Of a DNA stretch of 6,008 nucleotides, positions 1 to 6,008 are shown one piece after another. The translations under genes and the position numbers were made by a program. The stretch is taken from the IMG/VR virus record IMGVR_UViG_2693429677_000001. One strand, given 5' to 3'. A model generated the notes under the pieces. The model was not told the DNA's origin and searched no databases. It saw only the letters and a program-made list of their open reading frames with translations. The stretch comes from a virus (lineage: Duplodnaviria > Heunggongvirae > Uroviricota > Caudoviricetes). Each line of letters opens with the position of its first letter. The first letter of the stretch is position 1.

Positions 1-1044
1 GAAACGTACAAACCGCAGTTACAGGAAGGCAGTGGTCGTACCCAGACTATCCGCATGATTCTGGTTGTCACGAATACCGAAGCCATCACGCTGAAAATCG
101 ACCCGTCGGTGGTACTGGCGACCCGTAAATACGTGGATGATGAAGTCCTGGAATTAAGGCTGTATGTGGATGACCAGATGAGAAACCACATTGCCGCACA
201 GGATCCTCATACCCAGTATGCACAGAAACATAATCCGACATTTACCGGAGAACCAAAAGCGCCGACGCCTGATGCAGGAAATAACACCACGCGGATTGCG
301 ACCACTGCGTTTGTACAGGCTGCTATTACCGCTCTGATTAACGGCGCGCCAGCCACGCTGGACACACTGAAAGAAATTGCCGCGGCCATTAACAATGATC
401 CGAAATTCAGCACCACCATTAACAATGCGCTGTCAGGTAAGCAGCCACTGGATGAGACGCTGACTCATTTGAGTGGAAAGGATGTTGCCGGTCTTCTCGC
501 ATACCTTGGTTTGGGAGAAGGCTCTGCATTACCGGTTGGGGTGCCTGTTCCGTGGCCTTCAGCCACTCCGCCAACAGGCTGGCTGAAATGCAACGGTGCC
601 GCTTTTTCTGCTGAAGAATACCCGGAACTGGCAAAGGCTTACCCGACCAATAAATTGCCTGATTTACGCGGTGAATTTATTCGTGGCTGGGATGATGGAC
701 GTGGAGTGGATGCGGGACGTGCCTTGCTAAGTCTTCAGGATGACTCTTTTGAAGCGCACAGGCATGAGTCCTTTTTTTACGCGGGTATTTATCGCAATGA
801 AACACCATTAAAAAATCTTCCAAGTTCAGACGAGATGCTGACTTTAAGTTCCACAACTAATGCCTTGTCCCCGGACAGTATTGATGCCACTAATTCGTTA
901 ATTGGTAATGATGATTACAACTGTCTGATTGAAGGAAATAAAAATAACAAACGAACGGCGACGGGGTTGAGTACCAGTATTGTCGGTGCAGCAGAGACAC
1001 GCCCACGTAATATTTCATTTAATTACATTGTGAGGGCTGCATGA
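1..1044 (+). CDS. Phage tail fiber protein, 5'-partial (gene starts upstream of window); copy 1 of the variable C-terminal region
   Basis: Frame is open from base 1 (ETYKPQLQEGSGRTQTIRMILVV...) to TGA at 1042-1044. C-terminus ...ETRPRNISFNYIVRAA resembles the conserved C-terminal motif of Mu S / P1 S / lambdoid Stf-type fibers. 4-bp ATGA overlap with the downstream tfa suggests translational coupling. The ORF track's ATG at 55 is an internal Met. Confidence 0.85.
   Translation, partial: ETYKPQLQEGSGRTQTIRMILVVTNTEAITLKIDPSVVLATRKYVDDEVLELRLYVDDQMRNHIAAQDPHTQYAQKHNPTFTGEPKAPTPDAGNNTTRIATTAFVQAAITALINGAPATLDTLKEIAAAINNDPKFSTTINNALSGKQPLDETLTHLSGKDVAGLLAYLGLGEGSALPVGVPVPWPSATPPTGWLKCNGAAFSAEEYPELAKAYPTNKLPDLRGEFIRGWDDGRGVDAGRALLSLQDDSFEAHRHESFFYAGIYRNETPLKNLPSSDEMLTLSSTTNALSPDSIDATNSLIGNDDYNCLIEGNKNNKRTATGLSTSIVGAAETRPRNISFNYIVRAA
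494..519. other. Putative 26-bp invertase crossover site (gix/pix/hix-like), copy inside repeat A
   Basis: TTCTCGCATACC-TT-GGTTTGGGAGAA: two 12-bp half-sites around a 2-bp core. The right half-site matches the TTnTCnnAAACC-type half-site of Gin/Hin systems (compare gix TTCCTGTAAACCGAGGTTTTGGATAA). Lies at the constant/variable boundary of the fiber gene (LGLGE). Confidence 0.5.
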
Positions 1045-1511
1045 TGTATAACGCCATCTTAAATAGTAAATTTATTGCCACAAAGGCAGGAGAGATTACC
1101 GTTTATAACTATGACAGTGAGACACGGGAGTATATTTCTGCATCAACTGAATATCTTGCTGTGGGTGTCGGTATCCCTGCATATTCCTGTTTAGATGCTC
1201 CTGGCACACATAAGGCTGGTTATGCAATCTGCCGTTCGGCAGATTTAAACTCATGGGAATATGTGCCAGACCATCGCGGTGAAGTTGTCTATAACACCGA
1301 AACGGGAGAATCAAAAGAAATCACAGCTCCGGGTGATTACCCTGAAAATACAACCACTACCGTCCCGTTAACGCCATACGATAAATGGGATGGTGAGAAA
1401 TGGGTGACGGATACCGAGGCACAGCATAGCGCCGCAGTAGAAGCGGCAGAAAGGCCGTTGGTGATGCGAATGGTGTCTTGCCGACACCAGACCCGGCACA
1501 GACAAAACTGA
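1041..1511 (+). CDS. tfa: Tail fiber assembly protein (Tfa / P2 gpG / Mu U-like), copy 1, 3'-disrupted: conserved C-terminal domain replaced by 19 out-of-frame residues at the duplication junction (likely pseudogene)
   Basis: Residues 1-137 (MMYNAILNSKF...AAVEAAE) are identical to the intact copy at 2719..3324. After base 1451 the frame runs into fiber-gene sequence and ends RPLVMRMVSCRHQTRHRQN*. The conserved tfa C-terminus (...LDYIDAVTATDTSTAPDVIWPELPEA) is missing. Confidence 0.6.
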   Translation: MMYNAILNSKFIATKAGEITVYNYDSETREYISASTEYLAVGVGIPAYSCLDAPGTHKAGYAICRSADLNSWEYVPDHRGEVVYNTETGESKEITAPGDYPENTTTTVPLTPYDKWDGEKWVTDTEAQHSAAVEAAERPLVMRMVSCRHQTRHRQN

Positions 1512-2722
1512 TTAACCAGAAACGCATCGCGCCGCTGAATCTTCTGAGTGTTGACCCGAACAACCAGAGCCAGATTATTGCGGAGCAAATCATCCCTGAG
1601 AACGAGGGCGGATTCTGGATCCGTGAGATTGGGCTTTATGATGATGAAGGCGTACTCATTGCGGTGGCGAACTGCCCGGAAACGTACAAACCGCAGTTAC
1701 AGGAAGGCAGTGGTCGTACCCAGACTATCCGCATGATTCTGGTTGTCACGAATACCGAAGCCATCACGCTGAAAATCGACCCGTCGGTGGTACTGGCGAC
1801 CCGTAAATACGTGGATGATGAAGTCCTGGAATTAAGGCTGTATGTGGATGACCAGATGAGAAACCACATTGCCGCACAGGATCCTCATACCCAGTATGCA
1901 CAGAAACATAATCCGACATTTACCGGAGAACCAAAAGCGCCGACGCCTGATGCAGGAAATAACACCACGCGGATTGCGACCACTGCGTTTGTACAGGCTG
2001 CTATTACCGCTCTGATTAACGGCGCGCCAGCCACGCTGGACACACTGAAAGAAATTGCCGCGGCCATTAACAATGATCCGAAATTCAGCACCACCATTAA
2101 CAATGCGCTGTCAGGTAAGCAGCCACTGGATGAGACGCTGACTCATTTGAGTGGAAAGGATGTTGCCGGTCTTCTCGCATACCTTGGTTTGGGAGAAGGC
2201 TCTGCATTACCGGTTGGGGTGCCTGTTCCGTGGCCTTCAGCCACTCCGCCAACAGGCTGGCTGAAATGCAACGGTGCCGCTTTTTCTGCTGAAGAATACC
2301 CGGAACTGGCAAAGGCTTACCCGACCAATAAATTGCCTGATTTACGCGGTGAATTTATTCGTGGCTGGGATGATGGACGTGGAGTGGATGCGGGACGTGC
2401 CTTGCTAAGTCTTCAGGATGACTCTTTTGAAGCGCACAGGCATGAGTCCTTTTTTTACGCGGGTATTTATCGCAATGAAACACCATTAAAAAATCTTCCA
2501 AGTTCAGACGAGATGCTGACTTTAAGTTCCACAACTAATGCCTTGTCCCCGGACAGTATTGATGCCACTAATTCGTTAATTGGTAATGATGATTACAACT
2601 GTCTGATTGAAGGAAATAAAAATAACAAACGAACGGCGACGGGGTTGAGTACCAGTATTGTCGGTGCAGCAGAGACACGCCCACGTAATATTTCATTTAA
2701 TTACATTGTGAGGGCTGCATGA
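1478..2722 (+). CDS. Phage tail fiber protein, second copy, 5'-truncated (constant region + variable C-terminal cassette Sv); no credible start codon
   Basis: In-frame coding from about 1452 (KAVGDANGVLPTPDPAQTKL...GGFWIREIGLYDDEGVLIAVAN...), which resembles the N-proximal region of P2 gpH-type fibers. The last 329 aa are identical to 55..1044. The 'M' at 1478 is a TTG with no Shine-Dalgarno; an in-frame TAG lies at 1427-1429. Stop at 2720-2722 overlaps the tfa start (ATGA). Confidence 0.65.
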   Translation: MPTPDPAQTKLINQKRIAPLNLLSVDPNNQSQIIAEQIIPENEGGFWIREIGLYDDEGVLIAVANCPETYKPQLQEGSGRTQTIRMILVVTNTEAITLKIDPSVVLATRKYVDDEVLELRLYVDDQMRNHIAAQDPHTQYAQKHNPTFTGEPKAPTPDAGNNTTRIATTAFVQAAITALINGAPATLDTLKEIAAAINNDPKFSTTINNALSGKQPLDETLTHLSGKDVAGLLAYLGLGEGSALPVGVPVPWPSATPPTGWLKCNGAAFSAEEYPELAKAYPTNKLPDLRGEFIRGWDDGRGVDAGRALLSLQDDSFEAHRHESFFYAGIYRNETPLKNLPSSDEMLTLSSTTNALSPDSIDATNSLIGNDDYNCLIEGNKNNKRTATGLSTSIVGAAETRPRNISFNYIVRAA

Positions 2723-3129
2723 TGTATAACGCCATCTTAAATAGTAAATTTATTGCCACAAAGGCAGGAGAGATTACCGTTTATAACTATGACAGTGAGA
2801 CACGGGAGTATATTTCTGCATCAACTGAATATCTTGCTGTGGGTGTCGGTATCCCTGCATATTCCTGTTTAGATGCTCCTGGCACACATAAGGCTGGTTA
2901 TGCAATCTGCCGTTCGGCAGATTTAAACTCATGGGAATATGTGCCAGACCATCGCGGTGAAGTTGTCTATAACACCGAAACGGGAGAATCAAAAGAAATC
3001 ACAGCTCCGGGTGATTACCCTGAAAATACAACCACTACCGTCCCGTTAACGCCATACGATAAATGGGATGGTGAGAAATGGGTGACGGATACCGAGGCAC
3101 AGCATAGCGCCGCAGTAGAAGCGGCAGAA
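1679..3129. repeat. Direct repeat copy B (perfect 1451 bp)
   Basis: Same as copy A, shifted by 1678 bp. The 227 bp between the copies (1452..1678) encodes fiber constant-region sequence. Confidence 0.9.
2172..2197. other. Putative left crossover site of the invertible segment (pixL-like)
   Basis: Identical to 494..519. Bases 2184..2198 (TTGGTTTGGGAGAAG) are a perfect 15-bp inverted repeat with 4066..4080. Confidence 0.6.
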
Positions 3130-3324
3130 GCACAGCGCCAGTCGCTGATTGATGCTGCAATGGCTTCCATCAGTCTGATTCAACTGAAATTACAGGCCGG
3201 GCGGAAGCTGACGCAGGCAGAAACCACCCGACTTAACGCTGTGCTGGATTACATTGACGCAGTGACGGCAACAGATACCAGCACTGCGCCGGATGTCATC
3301 TGGCCTGAACTGCCGGAGGCGTAG
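2719..3324 (+). CDS. tfa: Tail fiber assembly protein (Tfa / gpG / U-like), intact copy
   Basis: 201-aa ORF, translationally coupled to the upstream fiber gene. C-terminal ...LNAVLDYIDAVTATDTSTAPDVIWPELPEA parallels the C-terminus of the minus-strand tfa' (...LWLDYLDALELIDTSSAPDIEWPTPP), as expected for the two chaperones of an invertible fiber segment. Confidence 0.85.
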   Translation: MMYNAILNSKFIATKAGEITVYNYDSETREYISASTEYLAVGVGIPAYSCLDAPGTHKAGYAICRSADLNSWEYVPDHRGEVVYNTETGESKEITAPGDYPENTTTTVPLTPYDKWDGEKWVTDTEAQHSAAVEAAEAQRQSLIDAAMASISLIQLKLQAGRKLTQAETTRLNAVLDYIDAVTATDTSTAPDVIWPELPEA

Positions 3325-3715
3325 GCCATTCAATATCTGGAGCACTGGAGGTATCAATCAGTTCCAGTGCGTCCAGATAATCCAGCCACAAATTATATTG
3401 CGCCAGTTCCTCACTTTTCAGACGACCAATAGCCGCTTTACCTGGCCATTGTCTGCTGTTCATGTGCTCGTTGGCTTCATTAATAAGTTTTCTTTTTTTC
3501 AAATCCGCCAATGCAATAAGGTTTTCTTTTGATAAAGGTGGTTGCTCTGTCAAAACCGGATATCCCTCCTGATTGCTGACTATTTTCATGCCATTATCCT
3601 GACCATCCAGTAGTAACAGCCATTCATCCGTGGTTATCTCAACAGCATCTGAAGGTGCTTTATTTAAATCGGTAAAAAAACCATTTTCTTTTTGTGAATA
3701 GAAGTATCTGTCCAT
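3296..3715 (-). CDS. tfa: Alternative tail fiber assembly protein (tfa' / U'-like) for the inverted orientation
   Basis: 139-aa minus-strand ORF immediately downstream (on minus) of the alternative fiber cassette: TAA TAA ATG junction at 3713-3721. Conserved tfa C-terminal motif DYLDALELIDTSSAPDIEWP. Its 3' end overlaps the + strand tfa 3' end by about 29 bp. Confidence 0.8.
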   Translation of the reverse strand: MDRYFYSQKENGFFTDLNKAPSDAVEITTDEWLLLLDGQDNGMKIVSNQEGYPVLTEQPPLSKENLIALADLKKRKLINEANEHMNSRQWPGKAAIGRLKSEELAQYNLWLDYLDALELIDTSSAPDIEWPTPPAVQAR

Positions 3716-3718
3716 TTA

Positions 3719-4120
3719 TTAATCTCCAAAAGCAATCCAGTAAGCAAAAGGATTTACTCCTTGCTCAGTCACAGATGACATCAGGGAAAATTGCGATGGT
3801 GAAACAGGTAACGCTGCAAAACTAACCATTGTTGACACACCTGACCGTGCATTATCGTACGATGCAACAACACAATAATTGGTATTGCTGAAAGATATCG
3901 GCAGGGTGATATTTACAGGTGAGCCTAATGGCCCTGATGCTGATATTCCCATTTGAATGATGGTTCCATCAGGCAATTTTCTCCAGCGATTAGAACTCGG
4001 ATTTCTTTTCCAGGCTGACATATCCGGTATCTGATTTTCTCCTGTGCCCACATCCCTTTTCGCCGCTTCTCCCAAACCAACGTTTATGAAAATGCAGAGA
4101 TAACGGCTAACTGGCATCAT
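3719..4120 (-). CDS. Alternative tail fiber C-terminal cassette (Sv'-like); promoterless, expected to fuse in-frame to the constant fiber region after inversion
   Basis: Minus-strand ORF beginning inside the segment next to the right crossover site. Reading from the site gives ...NVGLGEAAKRDVGTGENQ..., sharing the GLGE junction with the + strand fiber (...AYLGLGEGSALPV...) exactly at the 15-bp inverted repeat. The true coding start after inversion would be the crossover point (about 4066), not the ATG at 4120. Confidence 0.7.
   Translation of the reverse strand: MMPVSRYLCIFINVGLGEAAKRDVGTGENQIPDMSAWKRNPSSNRWRKLPDGTIIQMGISASGPLGSPVNITLPISFSNTNYCVVASYDNARSGVSTMVSFAALPVSPSQFSLMSSVTEQGVNPFAYWIAFGD
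4067..4092. other. Putative right crossover site (pixR-like), inverted relative to 2172..2197
   Basis: TTCTCCCAAACC-AA-CGTTTATGAAAA; its reverse complement TTTTCATAAACG-TT-GGTTTGGGAGAA shares the core and right half-site with the left site. Located 55 bp upstream of the invertase start, at the 5' end of the minus-strand fiber cassette. Confidence 0.6.
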
Positions 4121-4147
4121 CTCCGGTTTTTATTCAGGGGGATGATC

Positions 4148-4741
4148 ATGCTTATTGGCTATGTACGCGTGTCAACAAATGACCAGAACACGGAATTGCA
4201 GAGTAATGCGCTGGAGTGTGCAGGATGTGAGCTGATTTTTGAGGATAAAATCAGCGGCTCGAAGTCCGACAGGCCGGGGCTGAAAAAACTGCTCAGGACA
4301 CTATCGGCAGGAGACACGTTGGTTGTCTGGAAGCTGGACAGACTGGGGCGCAGTATGCGGCATCTCGTTACGCTGATAGAAGAGTTGCGCCAGCGTGGTG
4401 TGAATTTCAGAAGCCTGACTGACAGTATTGATACCAGTACCCCAATGGGCCGTTTCTTTTTTCATGTCATGGGTGCCCTGGCTGAAATGGAGCGAGAACT
4501 CATTGTCGAGCGGACACGCGCAGGACTGGAAGCGGCCAGAGCCAAAGGTCGTATTGGTGGCAGACGACCGAAACTCACCGCGAGTGAGTGGGAGCAGGTC
4601 GGACGGTTGCTGGCTGCGGGGGAATCTCGTCAACGTGTGGCGCTGATTTTTGATATTGGCCTGTCCACGCTCTATAAAAAATTCCCCTCATCAGCGACAA
4701 AGAATAAATTGTGTCATCCCTTAGCCAACCGGGACAAATAG
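4148..4741 (+). CDS. pin: Serine DNA invertase of the Gin/Pin/Hin/Cin family
   Basis: MLIGYVRVSTNDQNT...DTLVVWKLDRLGRSMRHL...RSLTDSIDTSTPMGRFFFHVMGALAEMERELIVERT...GRIGGRRPKL...STLYKKF is near-identical in motif content to Gin (Mu) and Pin (e14), with the catalytic Ser in YVRVSTNDQ and a C-terminal HTH. ATG at 4148 has a GGGGG Shine-Dalgarno 6 nt upstream; the ORF track's ATG at 4142 abuts the SD and is unlikely. The symbol is a family-level guess; the exact orthologue was not determined. Confidence 0.9.
   Translation: MLIGYVRVSTNDQNTELQSNALECAGCELIFEDKISGSKSDRPGLKKLLRTLSAGDTLVVWKLDRLGRSMRHLVTLIEELRQRGVNFRSLTDSIDTSTPMGRFFFHVMGALAEMERELIVERTRAGLEAARAKGRIGGRRPKLTASEWEQVGRLLAAGESRQRVALIFDIGLSTLYKKFPSSATKNKLCHPLANRDK
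4165..4250. promoter_or_regulatory. Possible Fis-dependent recombinational enhancer (sis-like) within the 5' coding region of the invertase gene
   Basis: In Hin and Gin systems the enhancer lies in the first ~100-150 bp of the invertase coding sequence. The segment here (gtgtcaacaaatgaccagaacacggaattgcagagtaatgcgctg...) resembles the Hin enhancer region as I remember it. Individual Fis sites cannot be placed by eye. Confidence 0.3.
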
Positions 4742-4800
4742 CCTGACATCTCCGGCACAATTGAAAATACCACTCACCCATTAACCACGGAGTTAAACGG
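4742..4800 (+). promoter_or_regulatory. Intergenic region expected to carry the late promoter / RBS for the FI-FII tail operon
   Basis: 59-bp gap between invertase stop and FI start with an SD near 4788-4792. In P2 the PF late promoter (Ogr-activated, TGT-N12-ACA dyad near -55) sits upstream of FI. I could not find a clean dyad here; an imperfect TGTC-N17-GACA lies at 4722-4746. Confidence 0.2.
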
Positions 4801-5991
4801 ATGAGTGACTATCATCACGGCGTGCAGGTGCTGGAGATTAACGACGGCACCCGCGTCATTTCCACCGTATCCACTGCCATTGTCGGCATGGTCTGCACGG
4901 CCAGCGATGCGGATGCGGAAATCTTCCCCCTCAATAAACCGGTGCTGATCACCAATGTGCAGAGCGCGATTGCAAAGGCCGGTAAAAAAGGCACGCTGGC
5001 GGCATCGTTGCAGGCCATCGCTGACCAGTCAAAACCGGTCACCGTTGTCGTGCGCGTGGAAGACGGCACCGGCGACGACGAAGAAACGAAACTCGCGCAG
5101 ACCGTTTCCAATATCATCGGCACCACTGACGAAAACGGTCAGTACACCGGACTGAAAGCCCTGCTGGCGGCGGAGTCGGTTACCGGTGTTAAACCGCGTA
5201 TTCTTGGTGTGCCGGGGCTGGATACCAAAGAGGTGGCTGTTGCACTGGCATCAGTCTGTCAGAAGCTGCGCGCTTTCGGATATATCAGCGCATGGGGCTG
5301 TAAAACCATTTCCGAGGTGAAAGCTTACCGCCAGAATTTCAGCCAGCGTGAGCTGATGGTCATCTGGCCGGATTTCCTCGCATGGGATACGGTCACCAGT
5401 ACCACCGCCACCGCGTATGCCACCGCCCGTGCGCTGGGTCTGCGTGCCAAAATCGACCAGGAGCAGGGCTGGCATAAAACGCTGTCCAACGTCGGGGTGA
5501 ACGGTGTTACCGGCATCAGCGCCTCTGTATTCTGGGATTTGCAGGAGTCCGGCACCGATGCTGACCTGCTTAACGAGTCAGGCGTCACAACACTGATTCG
5601 CCGTGACGGTTTCCGCTTCTGGGGTAACCGTACCTGCTCTGATGACCCGCTGTTCCTCTTTGAAAACTACACCCGCACCGCGCAGGTGCTGGCCGACACG
5701 ATGGCTGAGGCGCACATGTGGGCGGTGGACAAGCCCATCACCGCAACGCTGATTCGCGACATCGTTGACGGTATCAATGCCAAATTCCGTGAGCTGAAAA
5801 CAAACGGCTATATCGTGGATGCGACCTGCTGGTTCAGCGAAGAATCCAACGATGCGGAAACCCTCAAGGCCGGAAAACTGTATATCGACTACGACTATAC
5901 ACCGGTGCCTCCTCTCGAAAACCTGACCCTGCGCCAGCGTATTACCGATAAATACCTGGCAAATCTGGTCACCTCGGTTAACAGCAATTAA
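4801..5991 (+). CDS. FI: Phage contractile tail sheath protein (P2 gpFI family)
   Basis: 396-aa ORF starting MSDYHHGVQVLEINDGTRVISTVSTAIVGMVCTASDADAE..., which I recognise as the N-terminus and length of P2 FI-type sheath proteins. GGAG-type SD about 8 nt upstream. GC-rich codon usage, distinct from the fiber cassettes. Confidence 0.92.
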   Translation: MSDYHHGVQVLEINDGTRVISTVSTAIVGMVCTASDADAEIFPLNKPVLITNVQSAIAKAGKKGTLAASLQAIADQSKPVTVVVRVEDGTGDDEETKLAQTVSNIIGTTDENGQYTGLKALLAAESVTGVKPRILGVPGLDTKEVAVALASVCQKLRAFGYISAWGCKTISEVKAYRQNFSQRELMVIWPDFLAWDTVTSTTATAYATARALGLRAKIDQEQGWHKTLSNVGVNGVTGISASVFWDLQESGTDADLLNESGVTTLIRRDGFRFWGNRTCSDDPLFLFENYTRTAQVLADTMAEAHMWAVDKPITATLIRDIVDGINAKFRELKTNGYIVDATCWFSEESNDAETLKAGKLYIDYDYTPVPPLENLTLRQRITDKYLANLVTSVNSN

Positions 5992-6003
5992 GGAGCCTGA
6001 CCG

Positions 6004-6008
6004 ATGGC
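6004..6008 (+). CDS. FII: Start of next late gene, probably tail tube protein (P2 gpFII-like); 3'-partial, only ATG GC in window
   Basis: AAGGAG Shine-Dalgarno at 5990-5995 followed by ATG at 6004 (M-A...), in the position FII occupies after FI in P2-like phages. Confidence 0.4.

Follow-up and report, generated by a model that had tools for sequence, protein, structure and literature searches.

A probable P-type tail-fibre inversion switch in a P2-like Escherichia coli prophage

The stretch of DNA analysed here (the window) is the entire 6008-bp contig CYBT01000060.1 of the draft assembly GCA_001277775.1. It carries tail-fibre and fibre chaperone genes on both strands, a serine DNA invertase gene and the tail sheath gene FI. 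The features are collected in Table 1.

Table 1. Features of the 6008-bp window.
Feature	Position	Strand	Evidence or remarks
Duplicated block, copy 1	1-1451		Exact match to 1679-3129
Tail-fibre gene, copy 1 (P2 gpH-like)	1-1044	+	ORF and gene call; 5' end cut by the contig start
Crossover site A	494-519	+	Extra left-site copy from the duplication; direct orientation relative to B
Truncated tfa, copy 1	1044-1511	+	136-137 native residues, then 19 out-of-frame residues from fibre sequence
Duplication joint	1451-1453		tfa nt 408 (1451), untemplated A (1452), fibre nt 96 (1453)
Tail-fibre gene, copy 2	1453-2722	+	First 95 nt (31 codons) and native start missing
Crossover site B	2172-2197	+	Left-hand boundary of the 1.9-kb invertible segment; TT core at 2184-2185
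Sv, variable fibre C-terminus in the expressed orientation (174 aa)	2198-2722	+	Collar domain; 54% identical to e14 StfE
tfa, intact TfaE-type tail-fibre assembly chaperone (200 aa)	2722-3324 (start 2719 or 2722)	+	90.5% identical to e14 TfaE
tfa', alternative chaperone (139 aa)	3296-3715	-	Caudo_TAP; 53% identical to e14 TfaP
Sv', silent alternative fibre C-terminus (115 aa)	3719-4066	-	Gp53-like_C; 33% identical to the StfP C-terminus
Crossover site C	4067-4092	-	Right-hand boundary, in inverted orientation; TT core at 4079-4080
Pin/Gin-family serine DNA invertase (197 aa)	4148-4741	+	Resolvase and HTH_7 domains; Ser9 present
Candidate recombinational enhancer	4193-4255	+	Two Fis-like 15-mers (4193-4207 and 4241-4255); inferred
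Homologue of the P2 pF late-promoter activator-binding site	4704-4732	+	Overlaps the invertase 3' end
FI, tail sheath gene	4801-5991	+	ORF, domain and P2 alignment

In fibre copy 1, which is identical to nucleotides 322-1365 of the fibre gene of a natural prophage (L004), the constant part ends at 493 and the variable part Sv starts at 520. The constant N-terminus is in frame with either C-terminus: fusion at ...GLGE gives a 454-aa fibre with Sv or a 395-aa fibre with Sv'. When the segment is flipped in silico, the alternative 395-aa fibre is indeed produced in frame and is followed by its own 139-aa chaperone; each C-terminus has a Caudo_TAP chaperone of its own. The 3' ends of tfa and tfa' overlap by 29 nt. 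A preliminary description of the locus had considered the two cassettes to be unrelated in sequence and about 175 and 116 aa long. The lengths are indeed unequal, each figure being one residue too high. Sv and Sv' are unrelated (BLASTP E=41), but the two chaperones are homologous, since both belong to Caudo_TAP and they share 34% identity across their C-terminal 68 aa. Unrelated and unequal cassettes, singled out as a notable point, are normal for the family, as in StfE and StfP of e14. It had also been proposed to predict the receptors from homology with characterised fibres. The collar domain of Sv matches the solved structures of T4 gp37/gp12 and of another short tail fibre, and neither the distal tip of Sv nor any part of Sv' has a match among solved structures. 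Because these matches are limited to the Sv collar, no receptor can be named.

The cassettes Sv-tfa, on the plus strand, and tfa'-Sv', on the minus strand, are bracketed by sites B and C. Site B reads TTCTCGCATACC-TT-GGTTTGGGAGAA and site C, on the reverse complement, TTTTCATAAACG-TT-GGTTTGGGAGAA. These two 26-bp sites are inverted, have 21/26 bases and the central TT in common and are imperfectly palindromic (half-site symmetry of 10/12 for B and 8/12 for C). A 14-nt sequence made of the core and a half-site is present in three copies in the window, where chance would give 0.09, and 0/200 shuffles reach that number. In all 15 relatives with both flanks, exactly two inverted sites surround the cassettes. 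Scans for sigma-70 promoters and terminators gave matches no commoner than in shuffled sequence, and a search of Rfam gave 0 matches. A 14/16 complementarity between 1439-1454 and 4055-4070 shrinks to a 9-nt exact match beside site C and was taken as chance.

The invertase gene adjoins site C. Its product has the organization of small serine recombinases, with an N-terminal catalytic domain containing Ser9 and a C-terminal HTH (domain matches Resolvase, 2.1e-52, and HTH_7, 5.2e-13). Residues 1-182 align to the Gin structures 3UJ3 and 4M6F (E=1.5e-92 for 3UJ3), with conservation of YVRVS, and the protein is 85% identical to PinE and 77% identical to Gin. Systems of the Gin, Hin, Cin and Pin type use a Fis-dependent cis enhancer, normally found inside the 5' end of the invertase gene. 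In the window, a candidate enhancer may be placed at nucleotides 46-60 and 94-108 of the gene, which are the positions of a 48-bp-spaced pair in Mu gin; the Fis motif is degenerate and the first 15-mer ends with T rather than C. In comparison with pinE, identical residues are encoded by identical codons in 53/73 cases within the first 240 nt and in 32/81 cases later, an excess that mosaicism could explain. By analogy with Gin and Hin, inversion would probably require Fis bound to this enhancer in the 5' end of the invertase's own gene.

Homology to phage P2 resumes at about 4709-4721, at the 3' end of the invertase gene, and both the pF region and FI align with P2. The full P2-like gene order, V-W-J-I-H-G ... 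FI-FII-E-E'-T-U-D-ogr with pF upstream of FI, is visible in sequence-identical loci. The locus is thus part of a P2-like tail module, as had been proposed.

Natural isomers argue for inversion. Related loci carry the segment either way round, and the breakpoints coincide with the crossover sites. One locus (L013), 100% identical to the window across 4066-6008, displays 130/130 nt identity to the flipped right junction predicted for the same genotype. Two others (L010 and L007), with an identical invertase, are isomers whose breakpoints fall within the site, and the annotation of a further one (L020) shows the flipped architecture, fibre and alternative chaperone, as predicted. Among complete E. 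coli genomes, the flipped fibre junction was found in one piece in 15 cases and the orientation of the window in 320. For the P segment of e14 and for tail-fibre segments of P2-like prophages, sequencing and PCR have demonstrated inversion (PMC4272514).

With the sites, genes, frames, domains, orthology to e14 Pin/P and both orientations of the genotype directly observed, it is very likely (probability of about 0.9) that 2172-4092 is an invertible P-type segment of a P2-like (Peduovirus) E. coli prophage, flipped by the adjoining Pin/Gin invertase. The preliminary description had already read the region as an invertase-driven switch of the fibre C-terminus, with two convergent cassette pairs between inverted crossover sites beside a Gin/Pin-type invertase. 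All these elements lie where it had placed them, with coordinates right to the base, the flip is in frame and a flipped assembly exists in nature. Its attribution to the well-known family of Mu G, P1 C and e14 P also holds: judged from sequence, the switch is of an already known kind, orthologous to the P segment of e14 in E. coli. In the proposed mechanism, the invertase would pair the two inverted sites, cut at the central TT/AA dinucleotide and rotate the strands, so that the 1.9-kb segment would flip. In the orientation seen, the constant part of the fibre, ending with ...LAYLGLGE, is joined to Sv with its collar-domain tip, and the TfaE-type chaperone comes next. In the flipped state, that constant part would instead be joined in frame to Sv' with its Gp53-like tip, and the TfaP-type chaperone would come next. 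Particles would then differ in which of the two receptor-binding tips they bear, a bet-hedging strategy for host range. We infer that the two tips recognize different receptors and that the switch is active in the source strain.

Other readings of the segment may be envisaged. The genes and sites could persist as a locked fossil in which inversion no longer occurs. Decay has indeed affected some relatives, one of which (L016) has the same cassettes and a 3'-truncated invertase gene, reduced to its first 461 nt, and stfE of K-12 is annotated as a pseudogene. In the window, however, the invertase, whose disruption had been named in advance as a ground for rejecting the switch, is full length with its catalytic serine. 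Both sites have the same core and the identical genotype is found in both orientations. Such a fossil state appears highly improbable here. It may also be imagined that the switch is mainly an anti-phage device of the host, as reported for e14, and does not primarily serve the host range of the prophage itself. The orthologous e14 P segment is inverted by PinQ, and the resulting chimeric fibre protein, StfE2, blocks adsorption of phage T2 (PMC12529663); the 54% identity of Sv to StfE makes the parallel conceivable. Yet e14 is a defective remnant, whereas sequence-identical relatives of the window carry the switch in a complete P2-like structural module, from the capsid genes through Ogr, where the fibre is a virion component. 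We consider a mainly defensive role to be unlikely.

Upstream of the segment, the window contains a 1678-bp tandem duplication and a third crossover site, which the preliminary description does not mention. Positions 1-1451 are 100% identical to 1679-3129, with a tandem period of 1678 bp. The left crossover site is thereby doubled, site B sitting in the 5'-truncated second fibre copy. At the joint, tfa is fused out of frame to the fibre gene (1451/1452). The truncated tfa copy keeps Caudo_TAP profile positions 1-87 of 131, and in fibre copy 2 the Pfam Phage_tail_fib match begins only at profile position 42. A site-specific origin of the joint was considered and rejected: the closest 26-mers around the two breakpoints agree with the crossover sites at no more than 12/26 positions, as do 4% of the window's 26-mers overall, and the joint is not at a core dinucleotide. 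The joint looks illegitimate or artificial. The duplication is either recent and real or a product of assembly, private to this 6-kb draft contig, and in both cases it leaves the 2172-4092 switch itself unaltered.

If the duplication is real, the locus would be a three-site, four-state switch, with A and B direct and C inverted. The two copies are exactly identical with a clean joint, and collapsing the duplication in silico reproduces the natural prophage L004 exactly; on the other hand, A1452 is templated by neither parent, and a one-base scaffolder gap filled later would, from the general behaviour of such pipelines, give the same picture. De Bruijn assembly would normally demand read support for a new joint. 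The contig also begins at the repeat boundary and traverses the 226 nt of 1453-1678 twice, which may fit path extension through a true loop, but the window is a complete 6008-bp contig of a draft assembly. A 120-mer spanning the joint had no match in 5,426 complete E. coli genomes, and exact searches for the joint were equally negative in species-representative genomes, viral contigs and metagenome contigs. A P2-like prophage of EPEC does possess a three-repeat, four-variant switch (PMC4272514), and the four states of the present locus could be simulated with their reading frames; against this, the duplication truncates both genes and brings zero new cassettes. On balance, a real three-site switch is a plausible reading to which we give somewhat less than even odds. 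Such a locus would pass between four arrangements through inversion of 3.6 kb (A x C) and of 1.9 kb (B x C). State 1, the one observed, would have an intact fibre-Sv beside truncated Tfa, the intact tfa lying 1.7 kb downstream; state 2, an intact fibre-Sv with the sole intact tfa on the non-coding strand; state 3, intact fibre-Sv' and Tfa'; and state 4, intact fibre-Sv and intact Tfa. Inversion B x C alone would then leave the intact fibre unchanged, because the fibre copy bearing site B would be 5'-truncated, and this argues against a simple B x C switch in that case. RecA recombination over the 1451-bp repeat would collapse the locus to the common form.

It can be proposed, tentatively, that a real duplication represents a newly arisen intermediate on the way to multi-cassette inversion loci. 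Illegitimate duplication of a crossover site, a variable tip and a chaperone would have created a third site and a four-state switch, two states of which part the intact fibre from its intact cognate chaperone. Later replacement of a cassette could yield a three-specificity locus like that of EPEC. As it stands, the window falls outside the multiple-inversion systems (the EPEC three-repeat locus, p15B Min), its third site lying in an exact duplicate that supplies no new C-terminus.

The invertible segment itself is a textbook host-range switch, with near-identical copies in hundreds of sequenced E. coli genomes, and has little discovery value. In annotation pipelines its parts receive generic names ('recombinase family protein', 'gp53-like domain-containing protein'), and the orphan Sv' ORF and the invertase can now be assigned proper roles. 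The contig also calls for caution: short draft contigs across invertible phage regions can hold duplications mimicking extra recombination sites. If real, the duplication would offer a small, concrete example of how extra cassettes and sites join such switches.

Among known systems, phage P2 (NC_001895) has the FI sheath gene and the pF late promoter region in common with the window, but fun(Z) lies between its fibre operon and pF, and it has neither invertase nor alternative cassettes. The G segment of Mu (S/U, S'/U') resembles the window in its constant fibre N-terminus with alternative C-termini, a chaperone for each and the invertase immediately downstream, and the 26-bp sites of the window are 17/26 identical to gix. 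In contrast, the core dinucleotide is TT in the window and TC in gix, the segment measures 1.9 kb as compared with about 3 kb in Mu, and Sv, Sv', tfa and tfa' have no BLASTP similarity to Mu S, S', U and U' at E<=1e-3. In P2-like prophages of EPEC E2348/69, an invertase and inverted repeats switch the fibre C-terminus; sequencing and PCR revealed coexisting orientations, and a locus with three repeats has four variants (Goldberg et al., 2014; PMC4272514). That locus, likened here by description, has three different C-termini, whereas the third site of the window is a duplicate without a new cassette. The e14 P segment of K-12 (stfP-tfaP / tfaE-stfE / pinE) is alike in gene order and logic. Besides the identities of the invertase, both chaperones and Sv given above, the right crossover site is identical at 26/26 positions and the left one at 23/26, and both loci show a 29-nt overlap between the convergent chaperone genes. 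Sv' is weakly related to StfP (33% over 84 aa). The e14 segment is annotated in K-12 in the opposite orientation, lacks the extra 1678-bp repeat of the contig and belongs to a defective lambdoid element, whereas the window holds the same kind of switch in the intact tail module of a P2-like myovirus.

The sequence corresponds to the whole of contig CYBT01000060.1 (6008 bp) in draft assembly GCA_001277775.1. Both of its ends fall in conserved P2-like genes, at nt 322 of the fibre and 17 nt beyond the sheath stop, which suggests that the contig was ended by repeat boundaries from another related prophage of the same genome. Rfam searches gave zero matches in the window, and promoter and terminator consensus scans returned counts at or below those of shuffled sequence.

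Genes and crossover sites of the window
Feature	Position	Strand	Basis or sequence
Tail-fibre gene, 5′ end cut by contig start	1-1044	+	ORF map; Pfam Phage_tail_fib N-domain and Collar
Crossover site A	494-519		from the duplication; direct orientation to site B
Short tfa-like ORF	1041/1044-1511	+	ORF map
Second fibre ORF	1478-2722	+	ORF map and Pfam scan
Crossover site B	2172-2197	+	TTCTCGCATACC-TT-GGTTTGGGAGAA
tfa	2719/2722-3324	+	Pfam Caudo_TAP
tfa'	3296-3715	-	Pfam Caudo_TAP
Orphan ORF	3719-4120	-	Pfam Gp53-like_C domain
Crossover site C	4067-4092	-	reverse complement, TTTTCATAAACG-TT-GGTTTGGGAGAA
Invertase	4148-4741	+	Pfam Resolvase and HTH_7
Tail sheath gene	4801-5991	+	ORF map and Pfam scan

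The locus had been read in the preliminary description as an invertase-driven tail-fibre switch, and this reading is supported by an in-frame flip in silico, by natural isomers and by orthology to the e14 P-segment system. The inverted repeat then noticed is real and resolves into two 26-bp sites, B and C, each near-palindromic internally, which have 21 of 26 bases in common and the same central dinucleotide. The 14-nt core with the right half-site is present in three copies in the window, versus 0.09 expected, and no other 26-mer of the window is more than 15/26 identical to a crossover site. When 2186-4078 is flipped in silico, ...LAYLGLGE joins AAKRDVGTGEN...AFGD in frame, giving a 395-aa fibre directly followed by a 139-aa chaperone. 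The annotation of a related locus, L020, has this flipped order (395-aa fibre, 139-aa tfa on the + strand, 200-aa tfaE and Sv ORF on the - strand, invertase). An uninterrupted copy of the predicted 600-nt flipped junction (97-98% identity) is present in 15 complete E. coli genomes, and the window-orientation junction in 320. Contig L013 (GCA_002232395.1) is 100% identical to window 4066-6008 and its first 130 nt agree with the predicted flipped right junction at 130/130 positions, which is the most direct natural evidence of the flipped state. Loci L010 and L007 encode the identical invertase protein; their cassettes are related and lie in opposite orientations, the breakpoints being within the site. 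Every relative that covers both flanks has two, and only two, inverted sites. Sequencing and PCR have shown that the e14 P segment inverts, as do tail-fibre segments in EPEC P2-like prophages, one of these loci having three repeats and four variants (PMC4272514). The switch system is already known, and the genotype is common in E. coli.

Draft assemblies L012 and L013 start ahead of site C, by 143 and 97 nt respectively; L017 stops within the constant part of the fibre, some 150 nt upstream of site B. Such breaks in or beside the invertible segment are consistent with short-read assembly being confused by mixed orientations or repeated cassettes.

The preliminary description overlooked that 1-1451 is the same, base for base, as 1679-3129, which makes a tandem repeat with a period of 1678. 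At the joint (1451-1453), tfa nt 408 (…GCGGCAGAA) is followed by a single A at 1452 and then by fibre nt 96 (GGCCGTTGG…). This A is encoded by neither parent; at that position the relatives have T in the fibre gene and G in the tfa gene. The joint does not keep the reading frame; in copy 1, tfa is cut short and ends in 19 foreign residues, and copy 2 of the fibre is without its first 31 codons. Collapsing the repeat gives exactly the natural prophage L004. Away from the joint, L004 and the related loci L011 and L018 are 100% identical to the window, as is L017 where covered (346-1451 and 2024-6008).

This candidate duplication is the sole unusual feature of the locus. The joint was found neither in 5,426 complete E. 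coli genomes nor in species-representative genomes, viral contigs or metagenome contigs, and is unique to this contig in the collections searched. Its formation by the invertase was rejected because the breakpoints are unlike crossover sites. We would put at about 0.4 the probability that the duplication is real. In de Bruijn assemblers a new junction requires read support, which would argue for a real joint, and the shape of the contig (starting at a plausible repeat boundary, crossing the joint and re-entering the block) would fit path extension through a true loop. An assembly artefact would be suggested by the short draft contig with phage repeats at its bounds, by the exact identity of the copies and by the lone orphan base, the trace expected of a filled one-base scaffold gap. 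With a real duplication, inversions between A and C and between B and C would give four states, as simulated: states 1 and 2 would have an intact fibre-Sv beside a truncated chaperone, state 3 fibre-Sv' with Tfa', and state 4 fibre-Sv with intact Tfa.

The two cassettes had been described as unrelated. This holds for the tips (Sv, 174 aa, and Sv', 115 aa, without similarity) but not for the chaperones; since these are 34% identical over their last 68 residues, only the tips deserve the term. The 3′ ends of tfa and tfa' overlap by 29 nt, as in e14. A 22-nt inverted repeat, 82% complementary (3243-3264 / 3365-3386), reflects the homologous C-termini (LDYIDA / LDYLDA) that these convergent genes encode. 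Within the tfa coding sequence lies a near-perfect 20-nt palindrome, AATCTGCCG-TT-CGGCAGATT (2904-2923, copy at 1226-1245). In a comparison with solved fibres, of the kind proposed earlier as a guide to receptors, the sole match is the collar domain at the start of Sv (T4 gp37, gp12 and another short tail fibre). As distal Sv and the whole of Sv' match no solved structure, no receptor can be named. In e14, StfE2 is reported to block T2 adsorption (PMC12529663); by analogy, a host-defence role of the switch is conceivable, although an intact virion module makes it less likely.

Related cassettes and invertases are found in other settings. In locus L016, the same Sv-tfa-tfa'-Sv' set (9513-11912, about 93% identical) follows a 279-aa collar fibre, and the surrounding baseplate module is a different, non-P2 one (Phage_Wedge1, Baseplate_J, Sheath_initiator). 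With its 3′-truncated invertase gene, L016 looks like a locked copy, and it is evidence that cassettes move between phage types. In locus L009 (GCA_011902335.1), the fibre and cassettes are absent; Mu-like early genes (transposase, Gam, GemA, Mor) with an IS21-type insertion (about 1-9970) precede the identical invertase and P2-like sheath-to-ogr genes from 9971 onward. The breakpoint, near window 4119, is outside the crossover site.

Residues 1-182 of the invertase, which has the catalytic serine motif YVRVS, align with crystal structures of Gin (E=1.5e-92). The ORF extends 15 residues past this alignment; Gin itself extends 11 past the same point. A candidate Fis-dependent enhancer in the invertase 5′ end, as expected of the family, is only weakly supported, by Fis-like motifs at homologous positions and by a surplus, over the first 240 nt, of synonymous codons identical to those of pinE. 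Loci of identical sequence have the complete Peduovirus structural gene order. Canonical P2 carries fun(Z) in the slot between the fibre operon and pF. The ORF end (4704-4741) lies in, and overlaps, the homologue of the late promoter pF of P2 and its activator-binding site; homology to the pF region restarts at about 4709-4721, so that the last invertase codons overlap the activator-binding-site homologue. The invertase is 85% identical to PinE of e14 (E. coli K-12) and 77% to Gin of Mu. Identities to e14 proteins are 90.5% for tfa (TfaE), 54% for Sv (StfE), 53% for tfa' (TfaP) and 33% for Sv' (StfP C-terminus). The right crossover site of e14 equals site C (26/26), and at its left site 23/26 bases agree with site B; Mu gix has a match of 17/26 and another core, TC. 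From these invertase, cassette and site identities, the element is orthologous to the Pin/P-segment system of e14, placed in a P2-like tail module.
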